Below are positions 11,114 through 39,290 of a stretch of 44,914 nucleotides of DNA, piece by piece. Numbering within the stretch: the stretch's first letter is position 1; every line of letters starts with the position of its first letter. The notes beneath the pieces were generated by a model that made no database searches, was not told the DNA's origin, and saw only the letters and a program-made list of their open reading frames with translations. Location: the UHGV virus genome UHGV-0253772; one strand, 5' to 3'. A program made the position numbers and the translations under genes. This stretch comes from a virus.

Positions 11114-11189
11114 TGGAGAATCCGAAGGGACTCGAACCCTTATAAACCTGTTTTGCAGACAGGCACATAGCCATTTCTGTCACGGATTC
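11114..11189 (-). tRNA. tRNA-Cys (anticodon GCA)
   Basis: manual cloverleaf: 7 bp acceptor, T-loop GGTTCGAGTCC, anticodon loop cuGCAaa, CCA encoded. Confidence 0.65.
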
Positions 11190-11193
11190 AAAT

Positions 11194-11286
11194 TGGAGGA
11201 AGATACCAGACTTGAACTGGTACACCGATTTCTCAGTTACTGGCAGTTTAGCAAACTGCTCCCTTACCTTTTAGGGTTAATCTTCC
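11194..11286 (-). tRNA. tRNA-Ser (anticodon GCU), long variable arm
   Basis: 93 nt, T-loop GTTCAAGTC, anticodon loop ttGCTaa, long extra arm. Confidence 0.6.
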
Positions 11287-11287
11287 A

Positions 11288-12022
11288 TTATTTCTGTAAT
11301 GCGTTCTTCATTTCTGGTGTTGCAATAGTGTCAATCACACCAGTTTTACAAGCATCGTCAAACCAGTCTGGTAAGATACCTGCTAAGAACCCATTGATAT
11401 TCGTTTTAAGGTACTCTGCAATAAGGGCAGCTTCTTCTTCAATCATCTGCACAACTTCATCTGCATAAGCTGTAATCTTCGAAATACCTTCATTAATCTT
11501 ACTAACAGCTTGGTTAGCTAAATCAGAAATAGTATCAAGACCTTTGTCAATAGCATCTTGTAAGTCACTTAATACATCATTAACACCGTCTAGTGCACTG
11601 TTAATCATATCAATAGCTTTTTGACCATACTCTGTAGCAACACCCATAATACCACTAAATGGTGTACAACCGACTTGTTCACCTGCTGCACCCATAACAT
11701 TAGAATAACCTTTTGCTACCTGCATACGTGATGAAAACTCATCAATGGACTTTTGACCGTAATCCGTCAGCGTTTTGGTAGTTGATGTAGTACTTGTCAG
11801 ACTCGTTGTAAAGCTGTTAAGCAGAACTGTTGTAAGTCCAGCAGCAACAAGTTTATCCTTTATTGTAGGGTCTGTTACAGAGCTAATAGAGCTTACAAGT
11901 GATGTAGAGGCAGCTACGGTTCCACCGAGAACTGCTGCACCAGTAATAAGGGGATTAGAAAACCCTCTACCGGTTTTTAAGAGATTAAAAATCTCCTTAC
12001 CTTGTTCTGTCATCTCTTTCAT
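11288..12022 (-). CDS. hypothetical protein with N-terminal hydrophobic segment and helical C-terminal region
   Basis: ORF-track start at 12085 would overlap a tRNA; internal ATG at 12022 taken as start (244 aa). Confidence 0.5.
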   Translation of the reverse strand: MKEMTEQGKEIFNLLKTGRGFSNPLITGAAVLGGTVAASTSLVSSISSVTDPTIKDKLVAAGLTTVLLNSFTTSLTSTTSTTKTLTDYGQKSIDEFSSRMQVAKGYSNVMGAAGEQVGCTPFSGIMGVATEYGQKAIDMINSALDGVNDVLSDLQDAIDKGLDTISDLANQAVSKINEGISKITAYADEVVQMIEEEAALIAEYLKTNINGFLAGILPDWFDDACKTGVIDTIATPEMKNALQK

Positions 12023-12038
12023 TAAGCACCTTTGAAAT

Positions 12039-12115
12039 TGGTAGTCCAGTGGGATTTGAACCCTCTTCTCATGTTTTTCAGACACGCGCTTTAACCATAT
12101 AAGCTACTTGGACTA
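12039..12115 (-). tRNA. tRNA-Phe (anticodon GAA)
   Basis: T-loop GGTTCAAATCC, anticodon loop ctGAAaa; D-arm and acceptor pairing imperfect in manual fold. Confidence 0.5.
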
Positions 12116-12120
12116 TAAAT

Positions 12121-12196
12121 TGGGGTGACCTACGGGATTTGAACCCGTATAGACCATGTTCACAGCATGGGTCATTACCATTTATGATAAGGCCAC
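12121..12196 (-). tRNA. tRNA-His (anticodon GUG)
   Basis: acceptor 7 bp with one G-U, anticodon stem ccatg/catgg, loop ctGTGaa. Confidence 0.6.
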
Positions 12197-12227
12197 ATTT
12201 AAGGACTCTCGTAAGAACCCTTAGAAG

Positions 12228-12303
12228 TGGCAGCGGCATAAGGATTTGAACCTTAATAAGACAGCTTCAGAGACTGCTGCATTGCCAGTTATGCTATACC
12301 GCT
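12228..12303 (-). tRNA. tRNA-Gln (anticodon CUG)
   Basis: anticodon stem with two G-U pairs, loop ctCTGaa, T-loop TTCAAAT. Confidence 0.5.
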
Positions 12304-12308
12304 AAATT

Positions 12309-12388
12309 TGGTACTCCATATCGGATTCGAACCGATACATAACACAGATTTTAAGTCTGGCCTCTCTGCCAATTGGAGTAATGGAGCA
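12309..12388 (-). tRNA. tRNA-Leu (anticodon UAA), atypical short variable arm
   Basis: D-loop CAATTGGCAGA of type-II style, anticodon loop ctTAAaa, discriminator A, but only about 7 nt variable region; boundaries uncertain. Confidence 0.45.
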
Positions 12389-12389
12389 T

Positions 12390-12465
12390 TGGCGGGGGAT
12401 GTTGGAATTGAACCAACTTCTTCGATTTCAAAGACCGAGGTTTTAACCTTGTAAACTAATCCCCT
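12390..12465 (-). tRNA. tRNA-Gln (anticodon UUG)
   Basis: T-arm gttgg-TTCAATT-ccaac, anticodon stem tcggt/atcga, loop ctTTGaa. Confidence 0.6.
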
Positions 12466-12473
12466 TTAAATCT

Positions 12474-13031
12474 TTACTTTCTTAGTGGATGAATAAAGAA
12501 TGCCAACATAACTCTTTCCCTTGAGAATGCTCTTTCTTCTGGGACAACACTTTTTAGCTTCCACCCAATATAAATTCTCCAGTAAAACTGTTTACCAAAG
12601 ACTTTAATTGATGGGATAAAAGCGAATAATCCCCAAGCATTGCTGTTCCACATTAGGAGATAACCTGTCTGATTATCTTCAGGGTTAGAACTTACGTTGA
12701 TATTACCTTTCCACTTAGTAACATCTTTTACATCTCTTCCTAACACATGGTAAGAGAAGTTATAAGCTTTGTTTCTCCAGAGCCAACCAACTCTCTGCAT
12801 ATAGACACCAAGCTTACCAATCTTTCTAATCTTAGCCCATCGTTCGATATGACCTTCATCACCATCAATTGGGTTGTCATAAGTTTCCATCCATCTGAAC
12901 CCGAAAGGTAAGTGTCCTTTCTTCTCACTGTAGAATGGAACTACAAAAGGTGCTAAGATAACTGCTAAGATTGCTGCAAATGGCTCTAATAAAGCTAAGA
13001 AAATCCATGAAGCATACTTCAAATATCTCAT
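12474..13031 (-). CDS. hypothetical membrane protein
   Basis: 185 aa, N-terminal hydrophobic helices, W/Y-rich; ATG start. Confidence 0.5.
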   Translation of the reverse strand: MRYLKYASWIFLALLEPFAAILAVILAPFVVPFYSEKKGHLPFGFRWMETYDNPIDGDEGHIERWAKIRKIGKLGVYMQRVGWLWRNKAYNFSYHVLGRDVKDVTKWKGNINVSSNPEDNQTGYLLMWNSNAWGLFAFIPSIKVFGKQFYWRIYIGWKLKSVVPEERAFSRERVMLAFFIHPLRK

Positions 13032-13270
13032 TGTCTAATCCTAGTAAGGAGGTAAACATTATTATCTGTTTCTGAGTTTTCTGGTAAAGCTGTCTCAAAA
13101 TTGACGCTTTTAAATTGTCTCCCACCAAAGTAATGACCAATAAATTTTTGTACTTTTATTGGGTCACATTCCCAGCCGACTTTCAAGAAAATGTGGGTAT
13201 CTATAGTGGGAACCCTTACAAACTCAATACTATTGGAATTTTCATGTTCAACGACGATTAATGTTTGCAT
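13028..13270 (-). CDS. hypothetical protein
   Basis: 80 aa ORF, ATG start, overlaps downstream gene start by 4 nt. Confidence 0.45.
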   Translation of the reverse strand: MQTLIVVEHENSNSIEFVRVPTIDTHIFLKVGWECDPIKVQKFIGHYFGGRQFKSVNFETALPENSETDNNVYLLTRIRQ

Positions 13271-13288
13271 AAATCTCTCTTATTTATC

Positions 13289-13364
13289 TGGCGCAGGATA
13301 AGGGACTTGAACCCCTATTAACAGCTTCGTAGACTGTTGCTCTATCCATTTGAACTAATCCTGC
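13289..13364 (-). tRNA. tRNA-Arg (anticodon ACG)
   Basis: clean cloverleaf: acceptor gcaggat/atcctgc, anticodon stem acagt/gctgt, loop ctACGaa. Confidence 0.65.
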
Positions 13365-13479
13365 TTACCTACGAGAACACCATACAGTTTTTCACAAACT
13401 TTGCTTTTACGTCTGTTTAGATATGACGCTCTAAACTTTTTTTGCAATTGACTTATTACTCATAGTGTTCTCCTAAAAT

Positions 13480-13557
13480 TGGTGTTCCAAGACGGATTCG
13501 AACCGTCACTAGTACAAGGTTTGAGCTTGCATCCTCTGCCAATTGGGATACTGGAAC
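13480..13557 (-). tRNA. tRNA-Leu (anticodon CAA), atypical short variable arm
   Basis: D-loop CAATTGGCAGA, anticodon stem gcaag/cttgt, loop ctCAAac, discriminator A, about 6 nt variable region. Confidence 0.5.
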
Positions 13558-13558
13558 A

Positions 13559-13633
13559 TGGTACTCACTAAAGGACTTGAACCTTTTTCTTCATCTTGTA
13601 AGGGTGATGTTTTACCATATAAACTAAGCGAGT
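13559..13633 (-). tRNA. tRNA-Val (anticodon UAC)
   Basis: T-arm aaagg-TTCAAGT-ccttt, anticodon loop ctTACaa, one mismatch in anticodon stem. Confidence 0.5.
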
Positions 13634-13729
13634 GTGAAAGAGGTCTGAAGTTGTGCCACTAACTCAACTCCGTGGAATTTGTTACGGTCTTCAGTTGACT
13701 CAAAGTGGTCTTTCACTTGACCTCTGAAT

Positions 13730-13805
13730 TGGTGCTCCCACAAGGATTCGAACCCTGATAAGTTGCTTACAAGGCAACCGTAATAGCCAATTATACGATA
13801 GGAGC
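13730..13805 (-). tRNA. tRNA-Thr (anticodon UGU)
   Basis: anticodon stem gttgc/gcaac perfect, loop ctTGTaa, T-loop TTCGAAT. Confidence 0.65.
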
Positions 13806-13812
13806 ATTAATT

Positions 13813-13887
13813 TGGAGCATCCAGAGGGAATCGAACCCTCAACCTCAGTTTGGAAGACTGTAATTTTCCCGTTTAAACTATGGATGC
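13813..13887 (-). tRNA. tRNA-Gly (anticodon UCC)
   Basis: acceptor gcatcca/tggatgc, T-arm gaggg-TTCGATT-ccctc, loop ctTCCaa. Confidence 0.6.
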
Positions 13888-13893
13888 ACTAAT

Positions 13894-13969
13894 TGGTGGA
13901 GTCACTGAGAATTGAACTCAGTTCCCAAGTTTGCAAAACTCGAATTTTAACCATATAAACTATGACCCC
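13894..13969 (-). tRNA. tRNA-Ala (anticodon UGC)
   Basis: acceptor with G3-U70 pair typical of Ala identity, anticodon loop ttTGCaa. Confidence 0.6.
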
Positions 13970-13974
13970 AATTT

Positions 13975-14050
13975 TGGTACAGGTGGAGGGAATTGAACCC
14001 ATCGTCTTACTGATTAAGAGTCAGCCGCATAACCATTTTGCTACACCTGC
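13975..14050 (-). tRNA. tRNA-Lys (anticodon CUU)
   Basis: anticodon stem gctga/tcagt, loop ctCTTaa; T-stem only 3 clean pairs. Confidence 0.5.
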
Positions 14051-14057
14051 ATTAATT

Positions 14058-14134
14058 TGGTACACCTAGAGAGATTCGAACTCACACTGAGCAGATTCTA
14101 AGTCTGCTGCCTCTACCAATTGGGCTATAGGTGC
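14058..14134 (-). tRNA. tRNA-Leu (anticodon UAG), atypical short variable arm
   Basis: D-loop CAATTGGTAGA, anticodon stem gcaga/tctgc perfect, loop ctTAGaa, discriminator A, 5 nt variable region. Confidence 0.55.
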
Positions 14135-14377
14135 ATTAAATCTTTTTAGAGAACTTCTAAGAACCTAAGCAACAAGGTTCCACAACAAGCTGTAATAACC
14201 TTAGAAGCCCTCTAAAAAGACCTAATTTGGTCTTTGCATAGTCTTGTTTAATCCGGTGACTAGAACCTTTGGAGAGCTTGATATTATCTCTTCTCCGTGA
14301 CACCTACTAGGTGCTTTACTGTGCGTGTACGACAATACACGAGGGATAAACCGAAAATGCGAGCAAGCATGGACGGA

Positions 14378-14719
14378 TTAAATCTTTAAGCTAAGTTCAG
14401 TCTTAGACTTGACATCTTTAGCTTTGTAGATGACAACTTTATCAAGTGGTTCAATGTAAACAGCTAAGTAATCAACTTGAGAGTTATCAAAATTCATTAT
14501 TCTATTTTCATTCTTGTTAGAACGAACTCTTTTCAGTTGCACTCTCCAAAGTTCACCTCTTTTGACTGATGTTGATTTTACCTCAACAGTCTCAATCAAG
14601 CCATCTTTGTGGACTAGAAAGTCATACTTTGCATTATCTGTAGCTGGTGAATACACTTCATAACCTCTTTTGAGGAAAGCTAATTGTGTAGCAATTTCAC
14701 CTACTGAACCTTTCTTCAT
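14378..14719 (-). CDS. Hjc-like PD-(D/E)xK nuclease (Holliday-junction-resolvase-like fold)
   Basis: motif order GSxGE ... YDFLV ... IETVEVKS matches the E-D-ExK signature of Hjc-type nucleases; ATG at 14719 with AAGGTGA upstream; the ORF-track start at 14728 is a GTG. Confidence 0.45.
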   Translation of the reverse strand: MKKGSVGEIATQLAFLKRGYEVYSPATDNAKYDFLVHKDGLIETVEVKSTSVKRGELWRVQLKRVRSNKNENRIMNFDNSQVDYLAVYIEPLDKVVIYKAKDVKSKTELSLKI

Positions 14720-14740
14720 AATCATCACCTTAAATTATTT

Positions 14741-14827
14741 TGGCAGAGAGTGCAGGAGTTGAACCCGTACCGTTTCCAGCAGCACCAGTTTTCAAGGCTG
14801 GTTGGTCTCCGTTGACCGCCACTCTCT
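14741..14827 (-). tRNA. tRNA-Ser (anticodon UGA), long variable arm
   Basis: 87 nt, perfect 7 bp acceptor agagagt/actctct, loop ctTGAaa, extra arm present. Confidence 0.6.
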
Positions 14828-14831
14828 CCGA

Positions 14832-14902
14832 AACAATCTTTGGCAGGGGTGTAGAGATTCGAACTCTAATCAAGAATTTTGGAGACTCTATTGCTGCCAT
14901 AG
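14832..14902 (-). tRNA. tRNA-Trp (anticodon CCA)
   Basis: acceptor aggggtg/cacccct, T-arm tagag-TTCGAAT-ctcta, loop ctCCAaa. Confidence 0.6.
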
Positions 14903-15050
14903 CTCACCCCTATTAAAACTACAATTCGAAGCTTACCGTATTATCTCAACACTGTAAAGCCCCTTCTCAGATTATTTACATGTTCTGGAAAACATGAGAT
15001 ACAGACCACCTCCCTACAGGAAGACCCGCTTAGGTCGTCTAAGTAATCTG

Positions 15051-15127
15051 CTAACTAATTGGCACACCCTACAGGATTCGAACCTGTAACTAACGATTTA
15101 GAAGACCGTTGCTCTATCCAATTGAAC
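15051..15127 (-). tRNA. tRNA-Arg (anticodon UCU)
   Basis: T-arm acagg-TTCGAAT-cctgt perfect, anticodon loop ctTCTaa. Confidence 0.6.
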
Positions 15128-15473
15128 TAAGGGTGCATTAATCTTTAAAGACTCTCTTAGAAAGCCCTTAAAGATGCCCACCTTATTAATCATACCGTGG
15201 GCTAGTACGCCAAATTCTTTGATGAGGGATTGGAATACCTCACTGGTGTTTAGCCTATCAAGCTACTGCCAGAAAAACATTGTCGTTTGCATTTATTTTA
15301 AATTTGCAAAATAGACGCTACGCAACGAAAACTATTCAGAATATGTACAACAAATTTCCCCACATTGTGTTACGTCTAACGCTCATGTATTGGTGTTTGA
15401 ATTATACATATTATGAATTATTTTTAGTTACTATAAAGTAGTCACATCTTAATGTCAACAACTTTATTGAAAT

Positions 15474-15549
15474 TGGTACTGGTAGGTGGAATCGAACCAC
15501 CGATGTTCCCTTATCAGGGGAGTGTTATAACCTTCTTAACTATACCAGC
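15474..15549 (-). tRNA. tRNA-Ile (anticodon GAU)
   Basis: T-arm ggtgg-TTCGATT-ccacc, anticodon loop ctGATaa. Confidence 0.6.
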
Positions 15550-15550
15550 T

Positions 15551-15627
15551 TGGAGGTTCAGATGGGAATCGAACCCACATTCATAGGGCTTATGAAACCC
15601 CTGCATTACCTTATCTGCGACTGAACC
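15551..15627 (-). tRNA. tRNA-Met (anticodon CAU)
   Basis: anticodon stem with three consecutive G-C pairs, loop ttCATaa; cannot distinguish initiator, elongator or Ile2 by eye. Confidence 0.55.
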
Positions 15628-15705
15628 ATAATAAGTACCCTAGTTAGAGAAACTGTTGAGTGGGTGTTTCCAGCCGCGCAGGTGTTTCTCAGTTAAGGGT
15701 GAATT

Positions 15706-15781
15706 TGGTAGAAGTGGAGGGATTCGAACCCATCGCCTGTCAGATTAAAAGTCTGCCGCATCACCATTCTGCTACACTTCC
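15706..15781 (-). tRNA. tRNA-Lys (anticodon UUU)
   Basis: T-arm similar to the Lys(CUU) gene, anticodon loop ctTTTaa. Confidence 0.55.
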
Positions 15782-16239
15782 ATTAAATTATCTTTGTAGA
15801 TAAGCTACCCAGACTTGCTTAAGGTCTGTAGCGATGTGCCTTTTTGGGTTTAAATCTAGAATTTACCCTTTCACCCTTTGTGGTCGCATACTCACAGGTA
15901 AGCTTAATAACTTATCTACAAAGATAATTACCAGACCGTTGTTTATCATCTTAAGTGCTACCATTACACCAACTCGACATCTGCCGAGTGAAGGAATCGA
16001 ACCTTCGCCTTTTCTTTACCGGAGAAATAGATTGTTTAAGTTTTGCTGTAAACGGTCTTCTGTAAATTTGTTGAGCCAGACCAAGTTTTAAATTTTTTCA
16101 AAATTAAATTGGCTTGAAAATATCATACGTACTTGCTGAATTTGGTCTTCTGCTCCTTTAAAGAATACTCGTAAGAACTCTTTAAGGGAGGGGCTAAATA
16201 GCCCTCTCAAAACATCATTTTGAAATACTTATTATAATT

Positions 16240-16316
16240 TGGCGGCTACGATGAGACTTGAACTCACATCATCTCCCGTGACAGGGGAGTATTTTCTCCA
16301 GTTAAACTACATAGCC
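16240..16316 (-). tRNA. tRNA-Asp (anticodon GUC)
   Basis: anticodon stem ctccc/gggag perfect, loop ctGTCac. Confidence 0.6.
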
Positions 16317-16321
16317 TCTAT

Positions 16322-16409
16322 TGGTGTGCCGTGTAGGAGTCGAACCTACCGAGTCTCAATGACAAGGGATTTACAGTCCCCACCGCTACCATCTACGGGA
16401 TAACGACAC
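16322..16409 (-). tRNA. tRNA-Tyr (anticodon GUA), long variable arm
   Basis: 88 nt, T-arm gtagg-TTCGACT-cctac, loop ctGTAaa, extra arm. Confidence 0.6.
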
Positions 16410-16418
16410 ATTTTAATT

Positions 16419-16495
16419 TGGCGGTTAGTCAGGGATTCGAACCCTGTGCCATTCGCTTAACAGGCGACCGCACATACCTTATGTGCTTCCTAACC
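16419..16495 (-). tRNA. tRNA-Asn (anticodon GUU)
   Basis: T-arm caggg-TTCGAAT-ccctg, D-stem gcac/gtgc, loop ctGTTaa. Confidence 0.6.
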
Positions 16496-16571
16496 TTAAT
16501 ACATTACCAGACCGTGTTTTTCTTTTATCCGCAAAAAGTAGTTTGTTGCTGAATACGGTCTTCTGTAAAAT

Positions 16572-16648
16572 TGGAGGCGGGTGCAGGAGTCGAACCTGCC
16601 GATACCATGCTAATGAGACATGTGAGACGCCCTTTCTCTATACCCGCA
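16572..16648 (-). tRNA. tRNA-Met (anticodon CAU), second copy
   Basis: T-arm gcagg-TTCGACT-cctgc, anticodon stem catgt/gcatg, loop ctCATta; acceptor boundaries uncertain. Confidence 0.45.
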
Positions 16649-16739
16649 ATTCTTAATGACCAGACCAAATCTCTTCTTTGTCCGATTTACCTTCAGATGA
16701 ATAAGATTAAGTTTGCTGTAATTGGTCTTCTGTCAAAAC

Positions 16740-16817
16740 TGGCGTTCCAGAAGGGATTTGAACCCTCAGATATCCACTTTGAAAGAGTGGTGACTTTACC
16801 ATTTTGTCTACTGGAAC
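16740..16817 (-). tRNA. tRNA-Glu (anticodon UUC)
   Basis: acceptor gttccag/ctggaac, anticodon stem ccact/agtgg perfect, loop ctTTCaa. Confidence 0.6.
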
Positions 16818-16824
16818 ATTAATT

Positions 16825-16901
16825 TGGTCTCTGTTGGAGGACTTGAACCTCCGGCCTTACCGCCCCAAACGGAACGCTCTACCAAGCTGAGCTAAACAGA
16901 G
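16825..16901 (-). tRNA. tRNA-Pro (anticodon UGG)
   Basis: acceptor ctctgtt/aacagag, T-arm ggagg-TTCAAGT-cctcc, loop ttTGGgg. Confidence 0.55.
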
Positions 16902-27399: not shown

Positions 27400-28900
27400 G
27401 TCACCATCATATGTGAATAAGATATCTACCCTTCTTAATAGCCTTCTTAATCTTACTCTCTATATAGTTATATAGTACTATACAGTATCTTAGTAACTAT
27501 CTAGTGGTCTTAATAGCCCTCTGTATAGCCCTTCTAAACACTCTTCTAACAAGCCTTCTTAACAGCCTATACAATCACCTTAACCGTACCTCTACACCCT
27601 CTTAGAAGCCCCTATACACCTCTTAATCTCTATGTCAGCTATGATACCCTCTATATGTGTTCACTAGGGAATACTAAGCCTCTATATAGACTGTTTTAAC
27701 AAACTTAACAGGAATATCTTCACAGACCTTATCTCACAAGGTCTAACACGGTACTAACAAGGTATCTTATAAGCCTGTTTATGCCTGTATTTTTAAAAGA
27801 CTGTATAGGTAATTATTCAGAATTTTAAAATTTTTATAAAATAGGACTATCAAGTCATTTTTTAGGGTCTTTGAAGGAACTGAAAAATATCTGTAGAAGA
27901 TGTATATCTGCTTGGTAGCCCTTAACATCCCTGTAACATCCCCTTTGCAGAATTTTAAAATATCATTAACAATCTCTTAACAGCTATTACATTCTCTTAA
28001 CATCTCTTCAGAGGTCTTAACAGATTCTTAACAGAACTAACAAGGGTGTAACAAGTTCTTAACAGTCAATACATGGTCTTTATAGTTTCTTAACAGATGA
28101 CTAACAATAGCTAACAAGTTAATTTTTAAGAGTTATTTTGTAGGGATTGGTAACAATACCAATTAAGATAATTAACAAGTTTCTAACAAGTGTTTAATCT
28201 TTTTAACAAGCTATTAACATGGTCACTATCTCTTTTCTTATCATTCCCTTTCCCTCTTAGTGATTCTCTAAATAGCCCTCTTAAAAGCTCTCTATAGCTC
28301 CTTGTAAGCTCTTTTAAGCCTCTTCCTAGTAGTTACACCCCAACTGTACAGACACCTTTTTATAGGGCTTTACAGGGGCTTTAAAGGCTATGTCAAAGGT
28401 TCTTACAAGGCTTTTACGTGGTCTTAACAGAGATTTAACAAGGGGCTAACAAGTTGCTAACAAGTGCCTTAAAAGCATAACTATGTAGGGATTGTTAAGA
28501 AATTGTTAAGGGGGCTAGCATTTACGTAACTTTTAAGCTATCTATCACGTAACTTTGAAGTAACTTTATAGCCCCTATAACATACTTTTTAGTGACTATC
28601 AAGGGGATTGTTTAGTTATTCACAAGATACTAACGAGATAATAAAGCTCACACCCTTATAAGATTCTTTTAAGCCTCTATAAAGCCCTGTAAAGAGCTTT
28701 TAAGGGTGAGTTAATGCAATCCCTTAAGTTAGATTGATAAGGCTGTTATAGCGCTTTATAGAGCGTTTAAGTGGGCCATCCCCTTTCTGGGGTTATTGGC
28801 TTATATTTAAGTTGATTTGATAAAAGGCTATAGAGTAGACTATAGAGTTATTGCTTTTAAGGTCTGATAAGATTCTGAAAAGGTGAGGAAAGGGATTGTA
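27400..28900. repeat. ORF-free region dense in short TAACA(A/G)-type motifs and other short direct repeats
   Basis: no ORF of 60 aa or more on either strand; roughly 30 copies of cTTAACAG / cTAACAAG-like motifs, clustered at 27960-28230 and 28420-28465. Confidence 0.6.
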
Positions 28901-29229: not shown

Positions 29230-29303
29230 TTTCAGAATCTCCTAGTTTAAGGACTTTATTTAGTGGGGAAGGTCATTCCCTCCCCGTTGATTAGTAATTT
29301 ACT
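29230..29303 (-). repeat. intergenic cassette repeat, type A (copy 1)
   Basis: conserved gaatctccagtttaggac...tttagtggggaaggtcattccctccccgttgatt core with hairpin. Confidence 0.7.
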
Positions 29304-29562
29304 GCATGTTGGCGTATGTTGCAAGCCTTTTTTCGTTGTATTTTGTCAGAATCTCACAAGATAAAACATCATATTTTGTAACCGCTTTGCCTTTGTCGAG
29401 GTCAAAGAATCCGAACGCTTTACCGTCTTTGAATCCGACAACTTCGTAAGATTCTTTAACGATTTCACCATTGAACAAATCGCTTTCGATGCGGTGAAAC
29501 AGTGCTACGTCTTCTTTGTCAGTTGCAATTTGTAAAAGTGTGGTCAGCTCGACGTGTTCCAT
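29299..29562 (-). CDS. hypothetical small protein
   Basis: 87 aa; start defined by type A cassette. Confidence 0.55.
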   Translation of the reverse strand: MEHVELTTLLQIATDKEDVALFHRIESDLFNGEIVKESYEVVGFKDGKAFGFFDLDKGKAVTKYDVLSCEILTKYNEKRLATYANMQ

Positions 29563-29632
29563 TTCGAATCTCCAGTTTAGGATTTTATTTAGTGGGGAAG
29601 GTCATTCCCTCCCCGTTGATTGACAATTTACA
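29563..29632 (-). repeat. intergenic cassette repeat, type A (copy 2)
   Basis: same conserved core; spans stop of upstream gene to ATG of downstream gene. Confidence 0.7.
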
Positions 29633-30158
29633 GATTTTTGATTGTCTCGTCAATGTCTTTTTCAATATCTTTTAAAGTTTTTTCTAAGTTCTTGATATTG
29701 AACGTTAAACCTTCTCCCAGTGTCTTAGAGTAACCGCTAGGACGTAAATCATAAAGCTCGATTTCTTCCACTAGAGAAAGGTTAACAGCCCAGCCACCTA
29801 TGCCGTAGGCCATTGAAACGGTATTTACAGGGGCTTTATAGAACTTGTTCAAGGACTTGATAGAACGTTCATAAGCCATTTTATAACCATTTAAAAGGTT
29901 TTTAACGTGGTTGTGAACGTTTTTACAATCATCTAAGTAAAGACCTAAAAACATCGGGAGAAGTTCCGCGACAGCTTGCATAAAGTGAGAGACTACAACG
30001 GTGGAAACATTGCGACGATGGACGTAATAAGCCCCGTTTTCTGATTTGGTAATGGTTGCAAAGTGTACACCATTGCAACGAAATTCATAGGTATCTTTAA
30101 CAGGCTTTGACATTACAGCATTTGAACGAATGAAGTTGATAGCTTGAAATTTGTTCAT
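29628..30158 (-). CDS. hypothetical protein
   Basis: 176 aa ORF, start defined by cassette. Confidence 0.55.
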   Translation of the reverse strand: MNKFQAINFIRSNAVMSKPVKDTYEFRCNGVHFATITKSENGAYYVHRRNVSTVVVSHFMQAVAELLPMFLGLYLDDCKNVHNHVKNLLNGYKMAYERSIKSLNKFYKAPVNTVSMAYGIGGWAVNLSLVEEIELYDLRPSGYSKTLGEGLTFNIKNLEKTLKDIEKDIDETIKNL

Positions 30159-30228
30159 TTTAGAATCTCCAGTTTAGGACTTTATTTAGTGGGGAGGTTA
30201 TTGCCTTCCCGTTGATTAGTAATTTACT
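30159..30228 (-). repeat. intergenic cassette repeat, type A variant (copy 3)
   Basis: variant hairpin ggggaggttattgccttccc. Confidence 0.65.
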
Positions 30229-30377
30229 TGTTTTGATAGCTGATTGCAAGCAATTTTTTAAGTTTATCTATAAAGAATCTTTTAAGTGAATCCCTTTTAG
30301 ATAAACCCCCTCGAACAAATGTACTATTGTCAAGGGGTATCGTCAAGTAATTTTTTAAAGTTTTTATAAGTTATTGA

Positions 30378-30719
30378 TTAACTGATGAATATTTTTTCAG
30401 GCTTTACATAGCTGATACGCTGACTTTTTAGCAGGTCATCCCAGATTAGCGCGGCAATATGAGAATAGCCGGATTCACGTAAAAGTTTCATTGTTTTACT
30501 TCTCGTCTCAAAGCGGCTTGCGTAGTATTCACTGTTCAAGGTTGTTTTATTCCCTTCGTTGTCTGTATGGATGATTTGCATCACTTGAAAGGGGCTTACA
30601 TCCTCACCTTTGTTCCACTGCTCAAAGTATTTTAGGCACTGCATAGGTGATATCTTATCACTTACTTGAGTTGACCAAGATGAACCCTCTTTATCAGTAA
30701 TTACAGTTACATAAGCCAT
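30378..30719 (-). CDS. hypothetical protein
   Basis: 113 aa ORF. Confidence 0.55.
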   Translation of the reverse strand: MAYVTVITDKEGSSWSTQVSDKISPMQCLKYFEQWNKGEDVSPFQVMQIIHTDNEGNKTTLNSEYYASRFETRSKTMKLLRESGYSHIAALIWDDLLKSQRISYVKPEKIFIS

Positions 30720-30792
30720 TTTAGAATCTCCAGTTTAGGACTTTATTTAGTGGGGAAGGTCATTCCCTCCCCGTTGATTGACAATTTACAGA
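30720..30792 (-). repeat. intergenic cassette repeat, type A (copy 4)
   Basis: conserved core. Confidence 0.7.
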
Positions 30793-30808
30793 TTTTTATC
30801 AGGCTTGT

Positions 30809-31042
30809 CTAGTCTTTTTCAATGATAATTTCATACTGACCATCTACGCTGTCAAAATAGACACCATCTTCATCTTCTGTCTTAAAGTAGCATTGAATAT
30901 CATCACTGGCGGGATAGTCTTGTCTTGCTATCTGGCAAACTTGAATAGCATTTTCTTTACTCCCTGTAAACTCCTCAAGCCCTTTAAAATCACATGAATG
31001 ACCATTACAAATAGAAAGGATAAGATAAACGGTTGTAAGCAT
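30809..31042 (-). CDS. hypothetical small protein with N-terminal hydrophobic/signal-like segment
   Basis: 77 aa; the only array gene without a cassette immediately upstream. Confidence 0.45.
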   Translation of the reverse strand: MLTTVYLILSICNGHSCDFKGLEEFTGSKENAIQVCQIARQDYPASDDIQCYFKTEDEDGVYFDSVDGQYEIIIEKD

Positions 31043-31105
31043 GATTTAAGCCCTTTAAATGGCCCTGTATGGGCCTTAAGTTGGAAGTTGGTGTCTTTGT
31101 ACTGA

Positions 31106-31669
31106 TTAACCTAAAAAGTCTTTTAAATTGCGCTCTGTGATGTTTGCCGTGATTTTATCCAACAAGTCACAAAACACGGAACTATCACCGCTATTCTGTA
31201 CAATTTTCGCCATACTTAACAAATCATCGTCAACATAGCCTAAATTGCGGTTAGTTGCATCTGGTACAAAGAAAGGTGCATACATCGCACTAAATTTCGT
31301 CGAGTGAAGGCCAATAATCCAACCTTTATCAAAGTGTCCGGTAAAGCTGGCGATATCACTCATGTTGTCACAAGAATAATCATCCTCTAGCTCTTCCTCT
31401 GGGATATCCATCTCAATGACAATTACGTCCTGCGTTTCCATTTGGAAAGCTGCCGTAATAAGCCCAGATTCTAAAGCGTTTTGAATGCAGCGTTCACGAA
31501 TGTAAGAATCTTCCTCATCTTCCAGACATTCCGTTTTGATAATCTTGTTCATTGGGTAAACGTAGAAACAATCATCCATGTATGAGCAGTTCCAGATTCC
31601 TTCCGGCTTGTCGCCACCATTCAGCAGGTTTACAAAGTTTTTGATGGTAGTTCCGTGATAGCATTTCAT
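31106..31669 (-). CDS. hypothetical acidic protein
   Basis: 187 aa, D/E-rich. Confidence 0.55.
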   Translation of the reverse strand: MKCYHGTTIKNFVNLLNGGDKPEGIWNCSYMDDCFYVYPMNKIIKTECLEDEEDSYIRERCIQNALESGLITAAFQMETQDVIVIEMDIPEEELEDDYSCDNMSDIASFTGHFDKGWIIGLHSTKFSAMYAPFFVPDATNRNLGYVDDDLLSMAKIVQNSGDSSVFCDLLDKITANITERNLKDFLG

Positions 31670-31762
31670 TTTTGAATCTCCAGTTTAGGATTTAGTGGTA
31701 AAGCTCTTTATCTGGGGCTTAAGATACCAACTTTTTAAGCCCCTTGTAAAGTACTTTATTAC
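31670..31762 (-). repeat. intergenic cassette repeat, type B (copy 1)
   Basis: shares RBS-proximal core with type A but carries GGGGCTTAAG...CTTAAGCCCC hairpin plus ttgtaaagtactttat. Confidence 0.7.
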
Positions 31763-31960
31763 TTAATTTTTGACAACTTTTAAAACTGCAAGATAACCTA
31801 AGCAATAAGAATCACCGAAGAGAGTTCTACCCATGAAAGAATCCTCTTTGATATCCTTTGCAGTGACAGTTTTTTCTACGCCGTGGGAAAGGACTACATC
31901 ACCAACTTTGATATCTTTGATGTGTGTTGTTTCAATGGTTAAGCCGTTAATAATAGCCAT
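31763..31960 (-). CDS. hypothetical small protein
   Basis: 65 aa ORF. Confidence 0.45.
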   Translation of the reverse strand: MAIINGLTIETTHIKDIKVGDVVLSHGVEKTVTAKDIKEDSFMGRTLFGDSYCLGYLAVLKVVKN

Positions 31961-32030
31961 TTTAGAATCTCCTAGTTTAAGGACTTTATTTAGTAGGGAG
32001 GTTATTGCCTCCCCGTTGATGAGTAATTTA
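31961..32030 (-). repeat. intergenic cassette repeat, type A variant (copy 5)
   Basis: conserved core with variant hairpin. Confidence 0.65.
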
Positions 32031-32060
32031 ATCTATCTAAAAATCAGTGTCAACATCTTT

Positions 32061-32465
32061 TTAAAGTTCTGCGTAGATTGCATCACAGACATCACGGAAA
32101 TCATGATTTGTTAAGTTACGTTGTAACCAAGTGGCAAAGAAATCAGCGATTGCAAAATTAGCGTCATACTCGACGGATAGCCACACTTTAACAGCAAATC
32201 GGAACATCTTTAAATCAAGCTCTTTATTCATTACCTTTGATTTGCCTAACATGTCGGCCATCTCATGTTGTGCACCGTCTAGCGTGATACCGGCTGCAAC
32301 GTCAGCCAATGAGTTTTTTACGCTTTCAACGTCTAAGATAATACTTTGAATCTTCCCAATAATGTTTTGCAGTGTTTCATCTGGTGCTGATGATGTGATA
32401 ACATTAATCCGGTTGACGGTCAAACGTGCTTTTAAGATAGATAACTCACGATTATTAATAGCCAT
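32061..32465 (-). CDS. hypothetical protein
   Basis: 134 aa ORF. Confidence 0.55.
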   Translation of the reverse strand: MAINNRELSILKARLTVNRINVITSSAPDETLQNIIGKIQSIILDVESVKNSLADVAAGITLDGAQHEMADMLGKSKVMNKELDLKMFRFAVKVWLSVEYDANFAIADFFATWLQRNLTNHDFRDVCDAIYAEL

Positions 32466-32553
32466 TTTTGAATCTCCAATTTAGGATTTAGTGGTAAAGC
32501 TCTTTATCTGGGGCTTACTTTATCGAACTATAAGCCCCTTGTAAAGTACTTTA
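32466..32553 (-). repeat. intergenic cassette repeat, type B (copy 2)
   Basis: GGGGCTTA...TAAGCCCC hairpin variant. Confidence 0.7.
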
Positions 32554-32823
32554 TGCTAAATGCAGCTTTTTGCCTTTTACTATGATGTAACTTGATGCGC
32601 TATTGCCGCATACATCTTGATAAATTCTACGCAAACGGCCTTCGTAGTATACTTTCCAGCTAGTTGGAATCTTTTTCCCGTATCCGGTAGCAGTTTTTTG
32701 GAATCCTGCAAGTTGCCAATCCAAAATGTGCTGTTCAGCTTGTAAATCCTCGAAGTGCATTACACCGTTTACATAGTGGCGTAGGGTTACGTTTAAGGTG
32801 CGACCGTTGTTAGTAGTGTACAT
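32551..32823 (-). CDS. hypothetical protein
   Basis: 90 aa ORF. Confidence 0.5.
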   Translation of the reverse strand: MYTTNNGRTLNVTLRHYVNGVMHFEDLQAEQHILDWQLAGFQKTATGYGKKIPTSWKVYYEGRLRRIYQDVCGNSASSYIIVKGKKLHLA

Positions 32824-32897
32824 TTTTGAATCTCCTAGTTTAAGGACTTTACTTAGTGGGGAAGGTCATTCCCTCCCCGTTGATTAGTAATTTACTT
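32824..32897 (-). repeat. intergenic cassette repeat, type A (copy 6)
   Basis: conserved core. Confidence 0.7.
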
Positions 32898-32913
32898 GTT
32901 TTTAAAACTAAAA

Positions 32914-33246
32914 TCAAGAGAAATTTTTTCGTTTGTTCAGTTCTTGGACAATTACAGTGTAATAGTCTTTTAAGTCACTGATATTTAAAGCATTTATCAG
33001 AGAGTTATAATCATCGACAAGCTGAAAATTATCTTTGAAAATGTCGCTGATTTGATAAGTTTTTGATTGAAATCTGAAGCTCATTTCTAACCGTTTTATT
33101 TGTTCATCACTTAAACGCTCCAGAAAGCTCATTACAAGGCTATTATTAACCTGTTGCGTGATTGCCTTACTTGCCAAATTATATGCGCTATAAGCCTTGT
33201 ACAGTGCTATAATGGCAATGATTGCAGTGATACCCATCATTAACAT
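32914..33246 (-). CDS. hypothetical membrane-anchored protein
   Basis: 110 aa, N-terminal TM helix, start overlaps upstream gene end. Confidence 0.5.
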   Translation of the reverse strand: MLMMGITAIIAIIALYKAYSAYNLASKAITQQVNNSLVMSFLERLSDEQIKRLEMSFRFQSKTYQISDIFKDNFQLVDDYNSLINALNISDLKDYYTVIVQELNKRKNFS

Positions 33247-33536
33247 GGTGCTTCCTCTTTACGTGATACTTTGCCATTTAAAGTTATCTCATAAGACTCT
33301 AGTAAATCACTTTCAGACTTAACAGGACTTTTACAAGTATCATCATAAACATTAATTTGCAATACAGGCTTTTTATACTCCCTGCAACTATTCCATAAGC
33401 AAATCACTACACGACGGCCTTTTATTTTGCCGTGTAACCATTCCATAACCTCATGAGTATTTCTTGAGGTCTCGATAAAATCGATTTTGTTGAGTAACTT
33501 GCTTAGATTTTCCCTAACTTTATTTGATAATTTCAT
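33240..33536 (-). CDS. hypothetical protein
   Basis: 98 aa ORF. Confidence 0.5.
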   Translation of the reverse strand: MKLSNKVRENLSKLLNKIDFIETSRNTHEVMEWLHGKIKGRRVVICLWNSCREYKKPVLQINVYDDTCKSPVKSESDLLESYEITLNGKVSRKEEAPC

Positions 33537-33627
33537 TTTTGAATCTCCAGTTTAGGATTTAGTGGTAAAGCTCTTTATCTGGGGCTTAAGATATCAGCTT
33601 TTAAGCCCCTTGTAAAGTACTTTATCA
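33537..33627 (-). repeat. intergenic cassette repeat, type B (copy 3)
   Basis: conserved core with GGGGCTTAAG hairpin. Confidence 0.7.
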
Positions 33628-33882
33628 GATTAAATTGCCAGTTAATGATAAGTGCATTTTATAGCCTTTTTTGGTAAAAACGTTCACTTTACCCAGTGTT
33701 TTTACACCTTTAAAAAGGTTGTTTGAACTGCGTTTTAAAGTTAACTGCTTATCAACCTTCACGCCCCACCTTACAGCAGATTGTTTCCCGTTGTCAATCA
33801 CTTTCCCGCATAACTTTTTAGCCATGTTGCGAGCGTCATCACGAGTCTTTGTAGTAATTACAACGTTTTTGATAATAGCCAT
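33625..33882 (-). CDS. hypothetical basic protein
   Basis: start moved to the ATG at 33882 that follows the cassette RBS; 85 aa. Confidence 0.5.
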   Translation of the reverse strand: MAIIKNVVITTKTRDDARNMAKKLCGKVIDNGKQSAVRWGVKVDKQLTLKRSSNNLFKGVKTLGKVNVFTKKGYKMHLSLTGNLI

Positions 33883-33972
33883 TTTTAAGTTCTCCAATTT
33901 AGGATTGAGTGGTAAAGCTCTTTATCTGGGGCTTACTTTATCGAACTATAAGCCCCTTGTAAAGTACTTTAT
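33883..33972 (-). repeat. intergenic cassette repeat, type B (copy 4)
   Basis: conserved core. Confidence 0.7.
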
Positions 33973-34352
33973 TTGTTAATTTTGAAGATAGTTACATAAC
34001 CATCGCTGCCGATGATTTGTGATGCTCCAGCTTTTTCTACTTGATAGCCCATATTTTCAAGATGATAAACAGCATCATCATAACCATATGCGCCGCCTTG
34101 ATAACGTCTCTTATCACATCTTACTAATACCTTTCCACGTCCAGCAAGTGCATTTAGTACAGCTTTTTCACTTGAAAGTGTACCATCTAACATGGTTGCC
34201 GTGTAATGGTTGATTCTATTCCCGTTTACATCATACTTAAAATTGAATGCGTGAACAACGATAATGTTACCTTTAAAATTTTCATCAAGTGACTTCTCCA
34301 GTGCGTTGCGAAAGTTGTCTTTGTTGATGAATTTAGGTGCACGGTATTTCAT
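33969..34352 (-). CDS. hypothetical protein
   Basis: 127 aa ORF. Confidence 0.55.
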   Translation of the reverse strand: MKYRAPKFINKDNFRNALEKSLDENFKGNIIVVHAFNFKYDVNGNRINHYTATMLDGTLSSEKAVLNALAGRGKVLVRCDKRRYQGGAYGYDDAVYHLENMGYQVEKAGASQIIGSDGYVTIFKINK

Positions 34353-34412
34353 TTTTGAATCTCCAGTTTAGGACTTTATTTAGTGGGGAAGGTTATTCCC
34401 TCCCCGTTGATG
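34353..34412 (-). repeat. intergenic cassette repeat, type A (copy 7, most upstream)
   Basis: conserved core; truncated upstream part. Confidence 0.65.
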
Positions 34413-34599
34413 CAAATACTAGGTAACCACGTTCAAAGAGTCAAGAAAAATTTTAAAAATATTTTTAGCAAAACTGTAATGAAACGGGCGCACACGACTA
34501 CCACAAAACAGAACTATAATCAAGAATTATTTTTCAATCCGCTACAAATTTTTCTGTTGACTTTTATTTCCAGATGTGGTAGCCTTGTGAGAAATGGCG

Positions 34600-34810
34600 A
34601 CATCCCCACCTGCACCCACCTACCTGCACAATTCTAAAATGATTTTTCTTGCCCGACCTGAGCGGGGTCTGCACGTTTTGAAAATGAAAAAGCTCTTTGG
34701 AGATTACCTGCACAGTTTGAAAATGAATTTTCTCTTTGGAGTTCAAAATTTTCTCTACAGATTTCTGTCCAGAACTCTACCTGCACAATCCTGAAATGAA
34801 AAAGCCCTCC
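34600..34810. repeat. four direct repeats CTGCAC(A/G)..(T/C)TGAAAATGA in a 450 bp noncoding stretch
   Basis: copies near 34632, 34668, 34708 and 34775; candidate promoter/operator region upstream of the minus-strand array. Confidence 0.5.
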
Positions 34811-34871
34811 TTACCTGAAAATTTACCAGATAAGAAAGGCTTAACCTATTGTGAATATTCTACAGAGTTTC

Positions 34872-35657
34872 TTAGTTCTTTGCGTCTAAGAAGGTTACTT
34901 CCGGTGAAGAGAAAATTTCCTCAACATCCTCATCAGTTCTTGCATAGATATATGTATCTGCATCACTGCCAAATGTTACTGCAATTCTGTGATTGCTCTT
35001 CGACAGGTGGGTAACTAGAGCGTTACTTAGAGACATCTTTTCAACCGGAGGGTTACTTTGATGTATCTTGCCTTTTCTTCGTCTGAAGAGGGTAACTGTA
35101 TCATCAGTGAACACTACTACACCTGCAAAGTATTCTGGTTCACAGTAGTTCTTCCAACCTGAGCGTAACTTGTGGTACATCTCACCTTCGTAGACATACA
35201 GATACACATCTACATTCTTCATCACCTGATTAATGATAACAGTGACGGCTTGAGGGTCTAGTCCACCGATACCTGCACCAATCATAGGTAACCCAACTTT
35301 CTTCAACTGATTGACTTCACAGTATCTGTTAAGCTGTTTCAAAGATGACTCTAAAGCACTGTATCGGGCATCTTTACCAGTCTTAAGCTGGGTGTAAAGG
35401 TTAGCTATACATCCTTGTCTTAAACGTGCTACAGAGAAATTGCCTAGTAAATTCTCACAGGGCTTGTGGCCTATGCCACCTGCATACAGATAAACTTCTG
35501 TATCAGTCTCGTATGCTTTTGGGTAAAATTTAGAAATCTTGTCAGCGATACCTGCACCCATTAAGTTCATACAGTTGCAACCGTGACCGATGACATCAAA
35601 CTTACCTTTATCAAATGCTGCAAAGATATCACCGTTGATGATTTTTACAATACCCAT
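34872..35657 (-). CDS. macrodomain protein, TARG1/DarG-like, with unassigned C-terminal domain
   Basis: N-terminal motifs INGDIF...FDVIGHGCNCMNLMGAGIA and later KVGLPMIGAGIGGLD resemble the TARG1-type macrodomain signature (recognised from memory, not searched). Confidence 0.55.
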   Translation of the reverse strand: MGIVKIINGDIFAAFDKGKFDVIGHGCNCMNLMGAGIADKISKFYPKAYETDTEVYLYAGGIGHKPCENLLGNFSVARLRQGCIANLYTQLKTGKDARYSALESSLKQLNRYCEVNQLKKVGLPMIGAGIGGLDPQAVTVIINQVMKNVDVYLYVYEGEMYHKLRSGWKNYCEPEYFAGVVVFTDDTVTLFRRRKGKIHQSNPPVEKMSLSNALVTHLSKSNHRIAVTFGSDADTYIYARTDEDVEEIFSSPEVTFLDAKN

Positions 35658-37471: not shown

Positions 37472-37496
37472 AATGAAAAAGGCTCCCGAAGGAGCC
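37472..37496 (-). terminator. rho-independent terminator
   Basis: minus-strand GGCUCC-UUCG-GGAGCC hairpin followed by U5. Confidence 0.65.
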
Positions 37497-37508
37497 TGTA
37501 TCTTAACC

Positions 37509-39206: not shown

Positions 39207-39265
39207 TGGTTCTCCTGTTTAGTTTATCGTGACAACAATTATACAGTACTCTGCACAAAATACAA

Positions 39266-39290
39266 ATAAAAAAGGACCGCCGAAGCAGCC
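39266..39290 (-). terminator. rho-independent terminator
   Basis: minus-strand GGCUGC-UUCG-GCGGUC hairpin (two G-U pairs) followed by U6. Confidence 0.5.

Follow-up and report, generated by a model that had tools for sequence, protein, structure and literature searches.

The noncoding gap between the macro-domain gene and the first cassette gene of the virus genome UHGV-0253772 contains four direct repeats that are real, unique in the genome and under purifying selection, and whose position and orientation are kept across the subfamily. The repeats are not explained by RNA structure, by coding or by a promoter consensus. Their sequence features suggest that they probably form a DNA-level, iteron-like binding array for a sequence-specific protein. 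The best overall explanation, to which we give a probability of roughly 0.4, is an iteron-like cis-acting array with a probably phage-encoded binder in a complex of the origin type; we infer all three of its parts, namely protein binding, the phage origin of the binder and the origin-type complex. That the repeats function as a replication origin, a reading by analogy, is possible but doubtful.

The window, that is, the whole stretch of DNA analysed (44,914 nucleotides), was assigned to Felixounavirus (Felix O1-like myovirus, subfamily Ounavirinae) by megablast and blastn, and 235 to 289 phage records matched the gap region in these searches, mostly at 88–96% identity. All genes around the repeats are encoded on the minus strand, and in the direction of transcription the repeats follow the macro operon and precede the cassette array. 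The macro-domain gene (34872–35657, minus strand) encodes a 261 aa product that generated a hit on Macro in Pfam (4e-8) and on 'phosphatase' in PHROG. The first cassette gene (33969–34352, minus strand) encodes a small protein without assigned function, as do the genes below it. A preliminary description, made from the sequence alone, had placed four direct repeats in a noncoding gap that separates the macro operon from the first cassette gene, and this location is confirmed, with the correction that the gap upstream of the cassette array measures 519 bp (34353–34871) rather than 450 bp. Mechanically called open reading frames of 50–92 aa overlap the gap on both strands; some are annotated in relatives, and they are not conserved as coding sequences. 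On the minus strand, the gap is ordered as terminator, R1 to R4, 60-nt spacer, 120-nt block including an A/T tract, promoter and 5′UTR, as listed below (pi, diversity among 17 distinct Felixounavirus sequences; PWM, built from 36 repeat copies of nine genomes).

34802–34842, minus strand: intrinsic terminator hairpin of the macro-domain operon, from a terminator scan (17 pairs; pi = 0.019)
34778–34805, minus strand: R1 (GCTTTTTCATTTCAGGATTGTGCAGGTA), core at 34782–34799, PWM 35.5 bits
34705–34732, minus strand: R2 (GAAAATTCATTTTCAAACTGTGCAGGTA), core at 34709–34726, PWM 38.8 bits, pi = 0.020
34666–34693, minus strand: R3 (GCTTTTTCATTTTCAAAACGTGCAGACC), core at 34670–34687, PWM 33.6 bits
34621–34648, minus strand: R4 (GAAAAATCATTTTAGAATTGTGCAGGTA), core at 34625–34642, PWM 35.5 bits, pi = 0.020
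34565–34624, minus strand: 60-nt spacer after R4, in the window a G-rich 'allele A' with a partial GTGCAGGT copy
34445–34564, minus strand: conserved 120-nt block, from alignments (pi = 0.096)
34416–34444, minus strand: predicted sigma-70 promoter TTGACT-17-TAGTAT of the first cassette gene, from a promoter scan
34353–34411, minus strand: 59-nt 5′UTR module with a GC-rich hairpin GGGGAGGGAATAACCTTCCCC (34385–34405) and a GGAG ribosome-binding site

The repeats are 28-bp units in one orientation (34621–34805, minus strand) with the minus-strand consensus G-N-W4-T-TCATTT-N7-GTGCA-G-G-T, which reads CTGCAC(A/G)..(T/G)AAAATGA on the plus strand, in agreement with the motif noticed earlier. Each unit consists of invariant TCATTT and GTGCA with 7 bp between them, about one helical turn centre to centre, and an A/T tract precedes these conserved half-sites; dyad symmetry was not found in the unit. 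The start-to-start spacing from R1 to R4 is 73, 39 and 45 bp, with which the previous estimate of 40–60 bp agrees only in part. Being interspersed, the copies were not picked up by Tandem Repeats Finder. Within the 44.9-kb window there are four occurrences of the exact core TCATTT-N7-GTGCA, each of them inside the gap and on the same strand, against 0.04 expected by chance, and none of 100 dinucleotide shuffles reached four. In the complete genome of the relative Ro111lw (86,950 bp), the PWM detected only four sites, scoring 30–39 bits, and the next-best score was 10 bits, at the rIIB terminator tail. Scanning of a genome collection revealed no paired copy of the motif in enterobacterial genomes, and the 42 scattered matches were all from unrelated taxa. 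A metagenome scan with the GTGCAT variant returned only unrelated perfect tandem, coding or low-complexity repeats, and the IMG/VR matches outside contigs of ~85–90 kb were tandem repeats with periods that are multiples of 3.

The array occupies the same locus, directly past the terminator of the macro gene, in the same orientation in four genera. Four copies are present in Felixounavirus (spacing 73/39/45 bp), in Mooglevirus and Suspvirus (75/41/45 bp) and in Kolesnikvirus, which comprises Erwinia phages (37/37/39 bp), and three copies (75/45 bp) in ECML-1-type Felixounavirus variants, from which R2 is missing. Between the gaps of Felixounavirus and Kolesnikvirus, blastn aligns the repeat segment only (window 34625–34727). 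An uncultured lineage only distantly related to Ounavirinae, with genomes of ~85–88 kb (L037/L136 and L138) that blastn could not match to a single Felix O1-type record of the phage collection, keeps the gene order of PNK-like phosphatase, SH3-barrel protein and macro gene, and carries four to five copies of AAAWTCATTTYAAAAACGTGCATAGG past the macro gene in a noncoding region of ~700 bp. In this lineage, ~170 bp of A/T-rich sequence with about ten TTAACA motifs abuts the repeats (5600–5780 of the reverse complement of L037; 3850–4030 of L136), and the small genes past the TTAACA region in the L037 lineage have TTGCnn-16-TATAMT promoters preceded by GATCCG. The macro-domain gene itself occurs as strongly diverged alleles, with 42% aa identity, among otherwise close Felixounavirus genomes, and the diverged allele (ECML-1; L010 1989–2768 compared with window 34872–35657) accompanies the three-copy array. 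Macro-domain homologues of T4-like and other phages are not followed by such an array, which therefore does not accompany macro genes as a rule.

Among the 17 Felixounavirus sequences, pi was 0.163 at third and 0.034 at second codon positions of the macro gene. The corresponding values for the repeat cores were 0.020 for R2, 0.000 for R3, whose core is invariant, 0.020 for R4 and 0.087 for R1, the most variable copy. Variable columns numbered 11 of 72 in the cores against 161 of 261 at third codon positions of the macro gene (Fisher p = 8e-13), and in Felixounavirus the cores are ~5 times less variable than third codon positions. The 28-mers were also more conserved than the spacers between the repeats (p = 0.006). 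The low diversity of the cores indicates purifying selection on the repeats, which are therefore not neutral duplication relics. The base following GTGCA is uniform within each lineage, G in Felixounavirus, Mooglevirus and Suspvirus and T in Kolesnikvirus and the L037 lineage, and copy-specific features such as an A5 versus a T5 tract persist between genera; for example, R4 and copy 3 of Kolesnikvirus are nearly identical, sharing the A5 tract and the flank GGTC(G/T)GGCAAG. Lineage-wide sharing of a base together with persistent copy features would fit co-evolution with one binder better than gene conversion.

Under the explanation that we prefer, an iteron-like array, a sequence-specific DNA-binding protein, probably encoded by the phage, would bind the four sites of ~28 bp in their single orientation, each with its two half-sites, TCATTT and GTGCA, separated by roughly one helical turn and preceded by the A/T tract. 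The array belongs to a conserved module of ~0.5 kb made up of the terminator, the repeats, a spacer of fixed length, the block, the A/T tract and a strong early promoter. The resulting nucleoprotein complex would be unique in the genome and of the replication-origin type, its iterons loaded with protein beside easily melted, actively transcribed A/T-rich DNA. The setting is origin-like in that 22 bp of pure A/T sequence and a strong promoter are located downstream of the repeats; the A/T tract in the window (34446–34467) lies ~150 bp from R4 and could be merely a promoter UP element. The lack of paired motif copies in enterobacterial genomes and the changes shared within lineages favour a phage-encoded binder. 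By-eye comparison with known consensus sequences gave no consistent fit across copies and lineages for sigma-54, sigma-E, sigma-32 or MotA-type sites, for IHF, Fis, OmpR, CRP or MarA/Rob sites, or for LacI-family, LexA, EcoKI or CRISPR-repeat sequences.

The array has the iteron hallmark of at least three direct repeats of ~17–28 bp in one orientation that are unique to the replicon, here four 28-bp units. It departs from iterons in being neither contiguous nor phased (at ~22 bp or whole helical turns), the copies being 37–75 bp apart with no common phase, and in adjoining no initiator gene. The flanking genes, the macro-domain gene and members of PHROG families without assigned function, contain no Rep-, O- or DnaA-like, DNA-binding or initiator domain. 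The existence of phages with three copies also counts against an origin-type complex. GC and AT skew follow gene orientation only, with no switch at the repeats. The replisome is T7 gp4-like (Toprim and DnaB_C), and replisomes of the T7 type are known to use promoter-driven origins and not iteron origins. In Felix O1, early transcription was suggested to start at the divergent DNA-polymerase region, and no origin was proposed at the repeat locus (PMC3185647).

Felixounavirus has two unrelated alleles of the spacer that follows R4, both of exactly 60 nt (pi = 0.287 across alleles). The second allele is a C-rich tract CCCCTCTCCCCCTCTTACTCCCCC, capable of forming a G-quadruplex on the opposite strand, that is also present in Mooglevirus, Suspvirus and Kolesnikvirus; the spacer length in Mooglevirus and Suspvirus is 54–56 nt. 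Unrelated alleles of equal length suggest that the distance from the repeats to the downstream block is architecturally constrained, a point in favour of the iteron-like array. Part of the block lies between the arms of a 15-nt inverted repeat (34491–34505 and 34575–34589; 87% complementarity, 69 nt between the arms); since one arm (34575–34589) lies in the allele A spacer, the inverted repeat is specific to the window-type allele. The 120-nt block carries an invariant AAAGTCAA, which includes a TTGACT −35-like hexamer on the plus strand, as well as TTGATT-17-TAGTCG, a degenerate repeat-like TTTCATTACAGTTTTGC and the A/T tract, which abuts the promoter; judging from the sequence, these sub-elements may be functional. 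The −35 and −10 of the 34416–34444 promoter, upstream of which the A/T-rich tract lies, are kept in all genera including Kolesnikvirus, and its register relative to ATCAACGGGG is identical to that of the other cassette promoters.

This conventional sigma-70 promoter is the actual promoter of the first cassette gene and belongs to the same family of promoter and 5′UTR-hairpin modules as those of other cassettes. BLAST of the gap against the window showed that the 5′UTR module recurs at 90–97% identity before at least six other cassette genes (copies at 29235, 29562, 30159, 30720, 31961 and 32824, in addition to 34353). The cassette array (window 29235–34411) contains two types of repeated intergenic module. 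Type A consists of a TTGACA-17-TAAATT promoter followed by a 59-nt 5′UTR with the hairpin GGGGAGGGAATGACCTTCCCC and a GGAG site, and type B, with copies near 31670, 32466 and 33537, consists of a hairpin GGGGCTTA..TAAGCCCC followed by AGATAAAGAGCTTTACCACT and a GGAG ribosome-binding site. Repeats of 39 bp and 57 bp are known from Felix O1 (PMC3185647), and they are contained in the type A and type B modules; the four-repeat motif is absent from all cassette modules of both types. In Ro111lw, the cassette array (80–86 kb, equivalent to window ~28.9–34.3 kb) is compositionally distinct while having the same coding strand as the upstream operon, with GC falling from ~0.39–0.40 to ~0.36, AT skew reaching 0.13–0.145 and GC skew approaching 0. 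The gap module marks the junction between a long early/middle operon, which contains replication and nucleotide-metabolism genes, rIIA/B and macro, and a terminal array of individually promoted small genes. Further away, the window encodes 27 tRNA genes on the minus strand (11114–16901, ARAGORN), 23 of which pass the Rfam gathering threshold.

In the regulatory or boundary alternative, which we hold to be unlikely though it is the strongest competitor, a host or phage factor at the repeats would activate, shut off or insulate the 34444–34416 promoter, or block read-through from the macro operon, possibly by looping or as a roadblock. The array does lie between a terminator and the first and best-conserved promoter of the cassette array, at a fixed-length spacer from the downstream block, and inspection showed a degenerate repeat-like sequence at about −70 from the predicted start site and a fifth weak match in L051. 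The phage also encodes a candidate regulator, a 99-aa HTH_3 protein, the Bas63 counterpart of which has negative fitness scores on disruption; its gene is elsewhere in the genome. However, the repeats lie 177–370 bp upstream of the −35 of the promoter (177 bp for R4, ~340–360 bp for R1), which is far for bacterial operators or activators, and no site overlaps the promoter or lies within ~100 bp of it. The units also do not have the dyad symmetry expected to be needed by HTH dimers of the Cro/C1 type, the distance to the promoter varies (~180 bp in Felixounavirus and Mooglevirus, ~206 bp in Kolesnikvirus, >220 bp in the L037 lineage), and the other cassette promoters do without such sites. The preliminary description had interpreted the array as an operator or phage-specific promoter array, and this is partly supported: the operator proposal may stand in the generic sense that cis-acting, protein-bound sites are favoured, and does not stand as a conventional operator, given the distance from the promoter and the asymmetry of the unit.

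It is improbable that the repeats act at the RNA or coding level, as a small RNA or protein-sponge RNA from either strand or as part of annotated small ORFs such as 34594–34794 on the plus strand. Open frames of 58–92 codons do persist on the plus strand in all lineages, several records annotate them, and a weak promoter-like TTGACT-17-TAGCCT on the plus strand (34559–34587), with a −35 invariant in three genera, faces the repeats. Two of the three frames of the unit are without stops, however, and long open stretches are thus expected from repetition alone. The spacing differences between genera are not multiples of 3, so the repeats are read in different frames in different genera; neither frame nor start codon is conserved among the relatives, and the plus-strand ORF 34594–34794 starts inside the hypervariable spacer. 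For RNA, shuffled versions fold better than the minus strand itself (z = +1.18), the plus strand is about average (z = −0.31), and RNAalifold on nine diverse sequences gave −13.5 kcal/mol for 200 nt with a covariation term of +0.08, which does not support a structure. Rfam gave no match in the gap, either at the gathering threshold or at E ≤ 1, and only tRNAs elsewhere. Sense-strand repeats would, moreover, sit behind a strong terminator. With RNA structure and coding unsupported, a DNA-level element remains.

A DNA-entry arrest or anchoring site analogous to the injection-stop (iss) region of T5 is a slim prospect. In the record of phage D4 (PP886228), both ends carry the identical 581-bp repeat, which maps to window ~27914–28526 and so shows where the virion ends fall, and the relative UAB_Phi87 has an experimentally determined 608-bp terminal repeat (PMC4837284). 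The window thus spans the physical genome ends, and its sequence is circularly assembled or concatemer-ordered. Genes converge from both sides on the mapped D4 terminal repeat at window ~27914–28526. The four repeats themselves were also considered as the genome end or packaging site, a candidate that was rejected since the 581-bp terminal repeat of D4 is ~6–7 kb away from them. Placed on D4, the four repeats fall within the right-terminal ~8% of the genome, and transcription runs towards the right end. According to the entry-arrest proposal, the repeats would be the inner edge of a first-entering segment with small early 'takeover' genes. A membrane-associated DNA-binding protein, for instance DnaA, would hold the repeats, which would be ancestrally DnaA-bound.

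In T5, the first-step-transfer segment accounts for 7.9% of the genome, and its end is a conserved, untranslated region of repeats and DnaA boxes that adjoins poorly conserved ORFs (bioRxiv 10.1101/866236). The position and setting of the array parallel this segment: the D4 repeats are 7.37–7.53 kb (8.2–8.4%) from the right end, and the terminal segment consists of small genes with their own sigma-70 promoters. Each of the four Kolesnikvirus copies agrees with the DnaA box TTATNCACA in eight of its nine positions. At a threshold of at most one mismatch to TTATNCACA, however, no copy in the window qualified, the copies being ACCTGCACA or GTCTGCACG with three mismatches each; across the lineages, mismatches numbered one in each Kolesnikvirus copy, one to three in the L037 lineage, and two to three in the window, Mooglevirus and Suspvirus, which is not box grade. 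Also against this proposal, strong sigma-70-like promoters are found inside the genome upstream of the repeats as well, the terminal repeat is ~0.6 kb as opposed to 10 kb in T5, and two-step entry is unreported for Felix O1-type phages in the literature examined.

About equally improbable is that the array is a non-functional relic, consisting of degenerated tandem copies of a terminator tail that remained after cassettes had been gained and lost. The U-tract of the macro operon terminator (TTTTTCATTTC) forms the 5′ part of R1, which thus overlaps the terminator; the two stem arms of this terminator co-vary in relatives, those of the ECML-1 type included. The same tail TTTTTCATTTC follows another intrinsic terminator (37480–37497, minus strand), and a one-mismatch core follows the rIIB terminator, the tail of which (CTTTTTTATTTGTATTTTGTGCAG; 39252–39290, minus strand) resembles the start of the repeat unit and has a TATAAT promoter next to it. 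These sequences hint at a terminator tail as the possible source of the T-rich half of the unit, and a copy number ranging from 3 to 5 would also fit decay. Nevertheless, the cores evolve ~5 times more slowly than third codon positions, and the array survives where the surrounding noncoding DNA is unalignable, as neutral relics would not; the conservation data thus disfavour a relic.

The promoter array of the preliminary description, four promoters of the sigma-70 or a phage-modified type, is very improbable: a TTGAAA-like hexamer was seen in each unit on the plus strand by inspection, but a properly spaced −10 is absent from both strands in any lineage (by consensus scan, and by eye in four genera), leaving no usable −10/−35 pair in any unit, the motif is not found upstream of other genes (10 bits for the next-best PWM site versus 30–39 bits), and the Felix O1 genome has a gene for neither an RNA polymerase nor a known specificity factor (PMC3185647). 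Four PWM sites in the whole genome of a relative do not make a promoter family. The motif search beyond the gap, which the preliminary description had suggested as a check, found the repeats at no other transcription unit, which is the computational half of the outcome it had named as contradicting its interpretation.

The element appears to be undescribed, as no earlier account of it was found in the genome papers on Felix O1, wV8 and UAB_Phi87 or by full-text searches on repeats, origin and transcriptome; the Felix O1 genome paper lists repeats of at least 24 bp only and states that temporal regulation is unknown (PMC3185647). Felix O1-type phages are widely used in typing, biocontrol and therapy of Salmonella and E. 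coli, and Bas63 is an emerging engineering chassis; so far, these phages lack a defined origin, packaging-independent cis element or temporal control site. As a noncoding array that is unique in the genome and kept throughout the subfamily, the four repeats are a concrete candidate for a cis-acting site of this sort. The PhageMaP data for Bas63, which are gene-level scores only, show that the macro gene and its neighbours are non-essential, and the array is best regarded as a 'do not disrupt' landmark for payload insertion in the adjoining non-essential cassette region. If the array serves as an origin or for entry arrest, experiments could begin on how the whole subfamily replicates or enters its hosts, and in the latter case genome entry in two steps or with a pause would extend far beyond the T5-like phages.

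Three known systems can be compared with the array. T4-type phages reportedly contain 'promoter-early stem-loop' (PeSL) regulatory cassettes, which are said to have been described by Arbiol et al. in 2010. The Felixounavirus cassette array resembles these in having small ORFs flanked by a repeated module of promoter and stem-loop, whereas the four repeats lie outside the modules and occur once only, at the head of the array. As in the iss region of T5, the repeats are located in a conserved noncoding region ~8% from the genome end, the array borders small, poorly conserved early genes transcribed towards that end, and some Ounavirinae lineages (Kolesnikvirus) have DnaA-box-like 9-mers. The iss region of T5, however, exceeds 1 kb, contains many inverted repeats and eight paired DnaA boxes, and is inside the 10-kb terminal repeat, whereas the array here has only four simple direct repeats, and the copies in the window are below DnaA-box grade. 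Iteron origins include lambda ori, with four O-protein sites, and those of the plasmids F, P1 and pPS10, in which the iterons abut at ~22 bp. Unlike these, the Ounavirinae repeats are 37–75 bp apart and overlap or adjoin no initiator gene, and the replisome of Felixounavirus is T7 gp4-like. Like them, the array consists of four to five non-palindromic repeats of ~20–28 bp in the same orientation, unique to the replicon and near A/T-rich DNA and a promoter, and lineage-specific changes are common to all of its copies. Judged by these sequence properties, the element would be best filed among iteron-like cis-acting repeat arrays.
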